Positions 1 through 3,000 of a stretch of 64,000 bases of DNA are shown here, piece by piece. Made by a program: the position numbers. Positions within the stretch are counted from its first letter, which is position 1. Every line of letters starts with the position of its first letter. Source of the stretch: Escherichia coli (GTDB taxonomy: Bacteria; Pseudomonadota; Gammaproteobacteria; Enterobacterales; Enterobacteriaceae); the NCBI RefSeq assembly GCF_045037415.1, contig NZ_CP173438.1; one strand, given 5' to 3'.

Positions 1-3000
1 CACTCATCCCGCAAATTCTTATCAGAAAGAATATCGAGAACTCTGAGTATTTGTCTGAACTGTGTCGATGAGTCCGACGGGAAGGCATTCCCTTCCAGAT
101 ACTCTTCTTTAAGATACAGTTTATTCTTTTGAAGCAAGTCTGCGCTTATTTTTGCCCTGTTATTCTGGATAAACTGCATCAACAGATACCAGGAAAATAA
201 GCATGCGCGTTCACTGCCCGCGATCCAGGATATTTTTTCCAGGGGGACCAGGAAGGCCAGGGCCTTCAGACGCATACCAGAAATTATTTGTTCAAGTTCA
301 AAATCTGAAAGTGTGATGTTCAGATTTTCTCTGTTTTTTTTTATGTAAGCGATAAAACGTTCCGGGGGATCATAAACATTAAGGGGCAGTACGGAGATAT
401 TACGCTCTCCAAGATAATAAGAGTAATACGCATTTGTTCTTTCATTCATAACCTTATCCGACAAAATTTTCTGAACCATCCTCTTTCTCCGGTTGCTTAA
501 AAATTAAACATAATAAGGTGATAATAACATGATAAAAAGAAGTTTATAATAGTATATTAAGGTGGTCAATAAAAAGGCAATCTGCGCGCTGTACAGTCAT
601 TCTGACAGGAAATGCAGGAGGAAGGGAAGGTAACCGGCTTCGTTATGCTGACAGGAATACCTGTTATCATGGAAGTGCACTCATGTGGCCGACGTAGCTT
701 AAGAGGATGGAAGAGTGGAGACTGCAGACAGGGGGTATTGAAAGGTAAACATGTTTCGCCCGCCAGCTGCACCGGGGGCCAGCATCACTTTTTTTACGTT
801 GTAACCCGGTATGCATTCCGGCTTTGATGATTACAGTCAGAGGGCAGCAGACTGACGTTATTTAACCGGACAGAAAAATTATGGACACTGAAATATCGTC
901 TGTTAATACCTCGTTTGTCGGTGTGGTATTCCCTGTATTACCGGCGTCACCGATAAAGAGAGTTATAAACGCCAGAAAGGTACCTCCTTTATGCCGGGGA
1001 ACACTTACGGAAAATGAAGTCTGAAAAGGAGCACAATGAAAAGAGGCGTGTCCCGTAAATATAACGAATCATCGCAGGATATGCATTATCAGGTGATACC
1101 AGAGGGCATTAAACTGTCGCCACGGATAAGAATATACAACATTTCTGATAACAAAACATCATAACGTGTTTCAGATATGTTCCGGCATCAGTCTGACGGA
1201 TATTATTTCCCGGGAAAACAAACCTGCTACTGTGACGGTTAACTGTATCTGCATAAATTATTTATGATGAAAGAACAGTATTACGGATTCAAATATCATC
1301 CTGTTTGCATTCAGGCGGACATTCCCGGATGCCGGAAAGAATATCCTGCAGGCTGAGTGAGTCTCTTCCACAGTGCCGGGATCGCTGTCGCCACGTACAT
1401 ATTGTCACCAGGATGGGTATGTACCGCAGCATGCCATTTCTGGTGAATAACCGCACCTGCACATTCAGTCTGCTGAGAACCTGGCGTGCATCGGGCTGTA
1501 AAGAACATCCCTGTCCGTGGCTCCTCTGGTGGTGTTGCCTGCTCAGCAATGACAGGATGCCCTTAAGACGCCCGTCATGGCTCAGTATGATGACGACGAA
1601 CACGCTCTGCAGGTGAGCATGCGGGGCCGGGAGCATCATCATTTCCGTATTTTGTCACACCTTCCGGAAGCAACCGGCATCAGTTGCGGTTATCGTCAAC
1701 CGTTGTGCGGTATGCCAGGAGCACGTACTGATCCATCAGATCCGTCAGTGCTGCGCTCTGCCTCTGACGGTTGATGATCCATTCCTCCAGCTCTTTTTCT
1801 GATTTCCGTTTCAGGTTCTCTTTCCAGTCTTCAAGGCTGTTTCCGGTCATTAAATCAAGCCAGCAAAGCCAGACCAGTTTGAGGCGCAACTCCGTGCCAC
1901 CAAACTGACGGAAGAGGCTAATCAGTTTATTTGCCAGAGAACGCTGCCTCAGACGTTCACATTCAGACAGGAGAATGCCTTCCAGCATCGGATGATGAAC
2001 CAGCAGATGTTCACTGGTGCATAAATTCACTATCAGATCATCATCCAGGGGCGGCGTGGCCCGTTTGTCAGGGCCATAAATCAGCCGGTGCAGGCTCTGG
2101 GGTACGATGGCAATCTCCGGTTTTTCACCATTGAATGACACCCACCCGGGCGTCAGATTATGGAAGTAGTAGATATTCGGATGACACACGCCCCAGGATA
2201 CGGCGTGCCGGGTGAAGCCGGTCAGCCATTTCTGGTAGCTTTCGTGGAGCAGTTCGTAACGGGTCTGATACTGTTGTTTCATTTTCATATTCCTCACGGG
2301 GGATATAACAGGCAGCAGAATGCCGCCGGCAGGCCGGGGATTACGTCTGCTGCGGGTGAACGGATAACGGTCAGAAATTACGGGCGGGGCTGTGCAATAC
2401 GCGCCTGTAGCCAGGCTTCCACTTCACTTTTCAGCCAGCGGGAGCTGCGGCCCAGCTTGATGGGAGCCGGAAAGGCCCCATCCCTGATGAGCCTGTAAAA
2501 CCACTTATCTGTCAGGCCGTTCAGTTGAGTGATAAATGCCATGTCGACCATCTGGTCATCCATCAGTGAAACTGGGGTGGTCATGAGAATGTTCCTCCGG
2601 ATGTTGTTAATCTCAACCGGCGTTGGTGATGAAAACAACGCACCACCTTCACCGGCATAACAACCGGGGAGAAACGTAAAAAATAATCGGGAATGTGACC
2701 GTCAGGAGATAAACGGGGGGATTGCGGTGGCTGAGCCGTACCGGTATGTCGGGTGGTTGTTGCGAAACGATGCTTCCGCACGCGCACGCGATAAAGGAGG
2801 GAGGACTTTCGTGAGACAAGGGGAAAACTAGCGTTCTGATAATTGCAGAGTTGTTTTTGAAGGCGGTTGTGGTATATCAGCCTGTGACCTGTGGGCAGGC
2901 GACAGTTATCACTGGTGGGATAAGACTGTCTGATTGGTATTATAAATATATAAGAGAGATCAAACACATGAGATCAAATACATGAGTTCATATATGTGAA

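Follow-up and report, generated by a model that had tools for sequence, protein, structure and literature searches.

Validated small proteins of E. coli, of 50 amino acids (aa) or fewer, typically keep their reading frame and their synteny across the Enterobacteriaceae, and many of them are hydrophobic membrane peptides. Genomic islands of the CP4-57 type, which are associated with P4 integrases, carry alpA (PF05930), the gene for an excisionase-like regulator. We analyzed a 42-codon open reading frame (ORF) in a stretch of 64,000 nucleotides of E. coli DNA (contig NZ_CP173438.1), referred to here as the window. At its left end the window contains backbone DNA of an E. coli genomic island associated with leuX; the tRNA-Leu(CAA) gene is at 47745-47829. 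We conclude that the ORF is very probably an accidental frame inside a pseudogene relic, and not a gene. Homology, synteny, neutral divergence and breakage of the frame in relatives, on which this conclusion draws, were each observed directly.

On the minus strand, the gene order at this end of the island is alpA, a 200-aa gene, a gap of 1.2 kb, a 305-aa gene, a YeeP-like GTPase gene and cah/Ag43, so that the 200-aa gene lies downstream of alpA and the 305-aa gene upstream of the GTPase gene (Table 1). The initial annotation had taken the two genes on either side of the gap for left-edge cargo; they are conserved backbone of the leuX-associated island. It had also called the gap gene-poor, which holds in that there is no RefSeq gene under the ORF, but PGAP calls a 65-aa "hypothetical protein" within the gap at 1577-1774, and part of the gap is a relic described below. 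Window positions 480-1700 match chromosomes of ST131-type and other ExPEC strains at 100% identity. Of 5426 complete E. coli genomes, 1927 contain this segment, and Nissle 1917 and ATCC 25922 are among the strains matched. The 305-aa protein belongs to a narrow family (28 clusters), and the relatives compared here share 49-79% identity with it. When genome contigs were scanned with this protein only one locus was found, in Serratia, and the only matches in a plasmid collection were two mis-filed chromosomal records.

Table 1. Features at the left end of the window, with the basis of each assignment or a remark.
Feature	Position	Strand	Basis or remark
305-aa hypothetical gene, 5' part (WP_000250227)	1-479	-	start codon 479-477
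Intergenic region from which alpA and the 305-aa gene formerly diverged	480-880		plausible regulatory region of the 305-aa/GTPase genes; Jukes-Cantor distance 0.24
Block of ~50 nt just upstream of the 305-aa gene	497-548	-	nearly invariant from E. coli to Serratia
Inverted repeat, left arm	790-821		32 nt, imperfect, 72% complementary with 2652-2683
Pseudo-alpA relic (AlpA-family excisionase-like regulator)	881-1062	+	ATG 881 is the ancestral start
Shine-Dalgarno-like AAAGGAG	1025-1031	+	4 nt (CACA) before ATG 1036
42-codon ORF	1036-1164	+	ATG 1036, TAA 1162-1164; sequence, module alignment, breakage in homologues
alpA-orf198 spacer relic	1063-1140	+	alignment to intact modules
Pseudo-orf198, 5' part, heavily decayed	1141-1341	+	ancestral ATG now ATT, 1141-1143
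3' flank of the intact block	1342-1679		travels with intact orf200 in other island types; unalignable to L002
Intact 200-aa gene, orf200 (WP_000813435)	1680-2282	-	functional paralogue of decayed orf198; dS 0.36, dN/dS 0.18 (window against L002)
Intact alpA, 68 aa	2378-2584	-	Phage_AlpA PF05930, E 1.7e-7; functional paralogue of the relic; dS 0.42, dN/dS 0.13 (window against L002)
Inverted repeat, right arm	2652-2683		upstream of intact alpA; outer end of the intact copy

The start at 1036, the 42-codon frame and its translation, MKRGVSRKYNESSQDMHYQVIPEGIKLSPRIRIYNISDNKTS, were confirmed in the sequence. An in-frame TGA at 1015-1017 closes the frame upstream, so ATG 1036 is the first possible start. 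The ribosome-binding site had been described as strong and at optimal spacing; the AAAGGAG motif is indeed there, but its spacing is not optimal, since 4 nt between GGAG and the ATG is among the shorter of the functional Shine-Dalgarno (SD) spacings in E. coli. The result is an uninterrupted ORF with a start, a stop and a ribosome-binding site that is no rarer than chance. In 2000 runs of a first-order Markov simulation modelled on the 1.2-kb gap, 7.5% of the simulated gaps held at least one ATG-initiated ORF that had an SD-like motif and was 42 or more codons long, and the mean of 0.078 such ORFs per 1.2 kb corresponds to about 4 expected in a random sequence of 64 kb. There are 253 ATG-initiated ORFs of at least 42 codons in the window, and 16 of the 253 are preceded by an SD-like motif. 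The predicted peptide is basic and hydrophilic (GRAVY -1.03, pI 9.9), and its 42 residues contain no recognisable motif and no hydrophobic or transmembrane segment of the sort that would suggest a type I toxin or a small membrane protein.

The ancestral arrangement was apparent from relatives of the locus. In L010 (Serratia), L011 (Salmonella), L012 and L015, orf197/198 and alpA lie on one strand (-) and orf305 and the GTPase gene lie on the other (+), with the alpA start approximately 420 bp from the orf305 start; the arrangement in L014 is likewise divergent. The reverse complement of window positions 470-900 aligns along the whole of this ~420-bp divergent intergenic region, and the alignment ends exactly on the alpA start codon of the relatives, which corresponds to ATG 881 in the window. 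The alpA relic thus occupies the conserved position, divergent from the 305-aa gene and followed by the 197/198-aa gene. Within the former intergenic region, the nearly invariant block at 497-548 is probably a promoter or operator. The native SD of alpA is weakened in the relic, from GGAG to GGAC.

Judged by its alignments, the gap from 881 to about 1341 is a decayed alpA with the alpA-orf198 spacer behind it, and then the beginning (5' part) of the 198-aa gene. The strongest homology statistics came by way of a better-preserved relic of the same kind in a second E. coli lineage, L002, whose gap is 72-76% identical to that of the window. In nhmmer searches the L002-type gap matched the modules of L015, L011 and L010 over positions 2-701 (E 2.6e-18, 9.3e-15 and 1.6e-13), and a profile of intact modules gave two collinear matches in the L002 gap (E 2.8e-7 and 6.5e-6). 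By BLASTP, the first ORF of the L002 relic was 37% identical to residues 1-38 of Salmonella AlpA, without gaps (E 5e-6). The window gap matched the intact modules directly and collinearly in nhmmer, but more weakly: E 4.1e-5 to the alpA of L015, E 0.004 for window 914-1205 (which covers the whole ORF) against positions 42-379 of the L010 module, E 0.02 for window 1167-1280 against positions 413-523 of the L012 module, and E 0.009 and 0.014 for further collinear matches, all of these relic E-values applying to a targeted search against only about 7 kb of sequence. With tblastn, residues 18-38 of AlpA aligned to window 928-990 at 48% identity (E 0.005), so that homology of the relic to alpA was found by nhmmer, tblastn and BLASTP.

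Direct DNA identity between the window relic and intact alpA is only about 50%, and the homology was clear only when the window or L002 relics were used as queries with the more ancestral modules as targets. A mixed profile of intact modules did not match the window gap, and pairwise Smith-Waterman comparison of the gap with the modules was marginal (z at most 3.2). When all six frames of the gap were searched against Pfam with stops masked, nothing matched, and a pseudogene of some other protein is accordingly not indicated. The relic does not encode a functional AlpA: the ~68-aa frame is broken, and the joined translation of the 42-aa ORF and the 47-aa ORF upstream of it had no Pfam match at E up to 10, with no recognisable Phage_AlpA/HTH_17 domain. 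Weak tblastn matches between orf198 (residues 74-102) and window 1574-1681 (E 0.2-0.8) were non-collinear and were put down to chance.

Alignment to the intact modules accounts for the ORF as a composite of the last ~8 codons of alpA, the lost alpA stop and the former alpA-orf198 spacer. Its beginning, MKRGVSRK, aligns to E/Q-R-x-x-x-S-R-K/N/Q* of intact AlpA, and the S-R-K at residues 6-8 is what remains, still in its original frame, of the AlpA C-terminus (S-R-K/N/Q). ATG 1036 is specific to the lineage and is derived from alpA Q-E/A-R codons. The segment GAAAATGAAGTCTGAAAAGGAGCACAATGAAAAGAG aligns to the alpA codons K-S-E-V-E-A-W-L-Q-E-R, and AAAGGAG aligns to the codons E-A-W (GAAGCCTGG) of intact copies, so the apparent ribosome-binding site is mutated alpA coding sequence. 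The ancestral alpA stop, TAA, aligns to TAT at 1060-1062, and because of this change the frame reads on through the former spacer, across a degenerate CCGG...CCGG hairpin at about 1088-1105 and the old SD of orf198 (AGGAATAT, now AAGAATAT). It then passes the dead orf198 start and ends 20 nt after it. The same alpA relic also accounts for the 47-aa ORF upstream (881-1024), which is its N-terminal part after frameshifting; indels break the frame of the relic, with a TGA at 1022-1024, a 4-nt deletion and others.

The relic lies tail-to-tail with the intact alpA-orf200 copy at 1680-2584 on the minus strand. The L002 lineage is homologous to the window only as far as about 1341, and from 1357 rightward the window matches other island types (M1 and AR434), in which the same ~330 nt follow intact orf200 and both the relic and orf305 are absent. 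These ~330 nt identify 1342-1679 as the 3' flank of the intact block, and a comparison of 1250-1690 with alpA-orf198 modules found nothing. On these alignments, about 1341-1357 is the rearrangement junction between the relic and the 3' flank. Each arm of the inverted repeat is the region ~60-100 nt upstream of an alpA start, and a single L012 segment aligns to both.

The simplest history would begin with alpA and the 197/198-aa gene divergent from the 305-aa/GTPase genes, a layout that Salmonella, Serratia and two further enterobacterial contigs retain. Inverted duplication, or recombination of two island types, would then have placed an intact alpA-orf200 block, in inverted orientation and accompanied by its 3' flank (about 1357-1679), beside the original copy. 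The original copy, 881 to ~1341 on the plus strand, would have become redundant and decayed, and the 42-codon frame probably arose from the debris as the C-terminal codons of alpA, opened by the TAA to TAT change, ran on to just beyond the dead orf198 start. That the inverted block arrived before the original decayed is our reading of the arrangement.

The initial annotation had left the choice between a genuine small protein and chance to the conservation of the ORF and its ribosome-binding site in related islands. Two lineages of the gap occur in E. coli, the type of the window (~1380 genomes) and the EC13 type represented by L002 (26 genomes), and they are 72% identical over window 480 to ~1300. 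L002 has ATA in place of ATG, AAAAAGGCC in place of AAAGGAG, so that the SD is lost, and a stop after 7 codons; the alignment has 14 gap columns within the ORF. Frameshifts also occur within the window's own lineage. Among 50 genomes spaced evenly through 1369, at least 11 carry an ORF that is truncated, frameshifted or otherwise altered: the 453-nt alleles have a +2 insertion leaving 20 aa (all five in the evenly spaced sample), the 452-nt alleles have a +1 insertion giving 53 aa with a new C-terminus (two of three checked), and an HS-type allele has a 15-nt replacement that exchanges 5 codons and leaves 37 aa. Most of the genomes sampled from this lineage do have the ORF intact, which says little, since most members of the lineage are at least 95% identical. 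Intact alleles in the sample differ by G4D, I21M, P29S and other replacements and by one silent change only; within the lineage, amino-acid and synonymous changes stand at about 3:1, as expected under neutrality. The reading frame is not conserved in homologous sequences, which supports chance and not a genuine small protein.

The rate of change agrees with this. Between the window and L002, the Jukes-Cantor distance is 0.33 for the gap (881-1300) and 0.40 for the ORF (1036-1164). The latter equals the dS of the neighbouring orf200 and alpA, which indicates that the ORF region evolves like silent sites, and we found neither purifying selection on the ORF nor a conserved start or frame. Between the same two lineages the flanking genes differ by no indels, the gap by dozens.

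A search of 5.8 billion proteins with the peptide returned only 16 clusters, all at least 74% identical and 31-68 aa long, and those that carry a source name are all from E. coli. The protein cluster of the peptide (P0008) also has a 395-aa "member", an unrelated sequence placed there as a clustering artefact. The Salmonella, Serratia, L012 and L015 loci lack the ORF region, and the search found no homologue beyond the lineage. RefSeq/PGAP has a gene under the ORF in none of 50 evenly sampled genomes (of 1369), and the exact peptide appears under the name "hypothetical protein" in several non-PGAP annotations and metagenome gene calls. Pfam, NCBIfam and PADLOC gave no match to the peptide, and the flanking proteins were uninformative apart from AlpA and the GTPase. 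The peptide was not found in full-text papers, nor was it matched in the small-gene and ribosome-profiling supplements for strain Sakai, which may or may not carry the locus. Our literature search found no paper on an alpA pseudogene or an inverted duplication in this island.

Could the ORF encode a genuine small protein of very recent origin and confined to this lineage, with its 42 aa, basic and hydrophilic, translated from a transcript of the surviving alpA promoter? The lost stop, the new ATG and the SD-like motif would permit such translation. The frame is intact in most genomes of the lineage with AAAGGAG 4 nt before it, its ATG and SD are derived states specific to that lineage, and since the relic keeps the old alpA start and its upstream regulatory region, a plus-strand transcript is conceivable. 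We nevertheless regard such a gene as improbable. The divergence of the ORF matches the dS of its neighbours and shows no constraint, its replacement and synonymous polymorphisms are in the neutral proportion, altered alleles are common in the lineage, there are no homologues elsewhere among the proteins searched, the native alpA SD has weakened, and the peptide lacks a hydrophobic segment or recognisable motif. Very improbable, too, is the particular form in which a newborn proto-gene, formed from pseudogene debris, would be translated at a low level in ExPEC leuX-island lineages under selection that is not yet detectable. A sequencing error or a programmed frameshift could instead have split one larger functional gene into the 47-aa ORF (881-1024) and the 42-aa ORF, which are adjacent (11 nt apart) and both alpA-derived. 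Hundreds of complete genomes, sequenced independently, show the same breaks, several indels separate the pair from intact alpA, their joined translation has no Pfam match, and an intact alpA lies 1.3 kb away. Agreement of the sequence across so many genomes rules against this explanation, which we treat as effectively refuted, with next to no probability left to it.

A further explanation, in which the gap is kept for a non-coding role (as a long leader, an antisense RNA or regulator sites for the 305-aa/GTPase operon) and the ORF is incidental, draws on the region to the left of the relic. Positions 480-880 diverge somewhat below the neutral level (0.24 against a dS of 0.36-0.42), the ~50-nt block is nearly invariant out to Serratia, and there is a sigma-70-like 10/12 match on the minus strand at 906-878. 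This low-divergence signal lies to the left of 881 and thus outside the ORF, whereas the ORF region changes at the neutral rate, has many indels and is absent from the Salmonella and Serratia layout. A structured RNA at the ORF was unsupported: positions 1-6000 had no Rfam match at E up to 1, a 120-nt sliding folding scan of both strands gave no window over 961-1240 with z below -1.5, and the z-scores over the ORF ranged from -1.4 to +1.2. Folding z-scores below -2 occurred only at 561-680 and 1401-1520 on the plus strand and were not significant among 60 windows. A regulatory role is plausible for 480-880 only, and we think it highly unlikely that such a role explains the gap as a whole. We return, then, to an accidental frame inside an alpA pseudogene, and infer from the evidence above that the ORF has no function.

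The main value of these results is for annotation, as one candidate small protein is removed. A 1.2-kb stretch that looked empty, and that roughly one in four complete E. coli genomes contains, is explained as the decayed original alpA-orf198 module that would have been left when the intact inverted copy took over. A strong-looking ribosome-binding site can be mere mutated coding sequence, and for this reason the other "hypothetical proteins" predicted in the gap by various pipelines also deserve distrust. If the ORF did prove to be a proto-gene, it would be a traceable example of the birth of an ORF from a pseudogene.

Compared with alpA of CP4-57-type, P4-integrase-associated islands, the relic at 881-1062 shares the start codon and the upstream region, adjoins the 305-aa/GTPase genes and has collinear DNA similarity to the intact gene. 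It differs in its broken frame, its unrecognisable HTH and its low DNA identity, and is a pseudogene and not a functional member of the family. The ORF resembles spurious, over-called short ORFs in being called by some pipelines and not by PGAP, in its restriction to a lineage, in its variable length and in its unconserved frame; unlike typical spurious ORFs, each part of it can be traced to a specific ancestral feature. It is like validated E. coli small proteins in size and in having an SD-like motif, but unlike them it is hydrophilic and unconserved. With de novo proto-genes it shares the loss of a stop and the chance gain of an ATG and an SD in non-functional DNA, and compared with them it has the sequence precondition only.

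We compared the window with L002, the second, diverged E. coli lineage of the gap at 480-1679, from -1631 to 3500, and observed strong mosaicism between this same pair of genomes. dS was only 0.05 for the 305-aa and GTPase genes, against 0.36-0.42 for orf200 (the intact 200-aa gene) and alpA. This difference implies that the left flank was exchanged by recent recombination and that a breakpoint lies within the gap or close to it. Among the loci of strains GW-AmxH19 and SCU-105 (L005 and L008), there were a frameshift in the 305-aa gene itself and an IS66 insertion at ~1483 (window coordinate), and therefore the entire module is undergoing decay in part of the population.

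The ~330-nt segment at 1357-1680 was present in 2733 of 5426 genomes, with up to 5 copies per genome, and was far commoner than the relic, the decayed alpA with the 5′ part of orf198. Several island types carry it, always on the 3′ side of an orf200-like gene.

Features of the gap and its surroundings, in window coordinates.
Feature	Position	Strand	Remarks
Conserved ~50-nt block, contains TTATCATGTTATTATCACCTTATTATGTTTAATTTTT	497-548	minus-strand sense	directly upstream of 305-aa gene start (479)
71-aa ORF	612-827	+	inside old divergent intergenic region
65-aa "hypothetical protein" WP_001329788.1	~1311-1508	-	PGAP, some genomes
65-aa "hypothetical protein" WP_001333284.1	1577-1774	+	PGAP, some genomes; overlaps orf200 3′ end
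Intact spacer with hairpin	2283-2377	-	window copy; further examples in Serratia (L010), Salmonella (L011) and another enterobacterial contig (L012)
tRNA-Leu(CAA)	47745-47829		window's own copy

We also considered the other small ORFs annotated in the gap. Since WP_001333284.1 and WP_001329788.1 both lie within junction or 3′-flank DNA and are flagged as frameshifted in some strains, they are probably spurious too. Many records list the 71-aa ORF as "hypothetical" or "unknown [Shigella flexneri 2a]"; a frameshift splits it in the L002 lineage, which makes it an unlikely gene as well. The 42-aa peptide encoded at 1036-1164 falls in a 90% cluster (P0008) that also files a 395-aa protein from a metagenome-assembled genome ("bacterium ADurb.Bin431"). 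We rejected this protein as a relative of the peptide; the two are unrelated, and their grouping is a clustering artefact of the collection.

By alignment, the block upstream of the 305-aa gene was near-identical across E. coli, Salmonella, L012 and Serratia; the proteins adjacent to it shared just 68-79% identity. This block probably serves as promoter/operator for the 305-aa/GTPase operon. Between alpA and the 197-200-aa gene, a CCGG…CCGG hairpin followed by GCTGCCTG was conserved in all intact modules, and the relic copy of this hairpin was degenerate. It may act as an attenuator or as a signal for processing.

Identity of the window to strain 4/1-1 (NZ_CP023844) ended at 6803, and from 6804 the ungapped comparison broke down. 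Past that point, the feature of the window taken into account was its tRNA-Leu(CAA) at 47745-47829. In strain 4/1-1, the leuX-linked region further contains the fec operon, copies of IS66, IS3 and IS1, and a truncated integrase adjoining tRNA-Leu(CAA).
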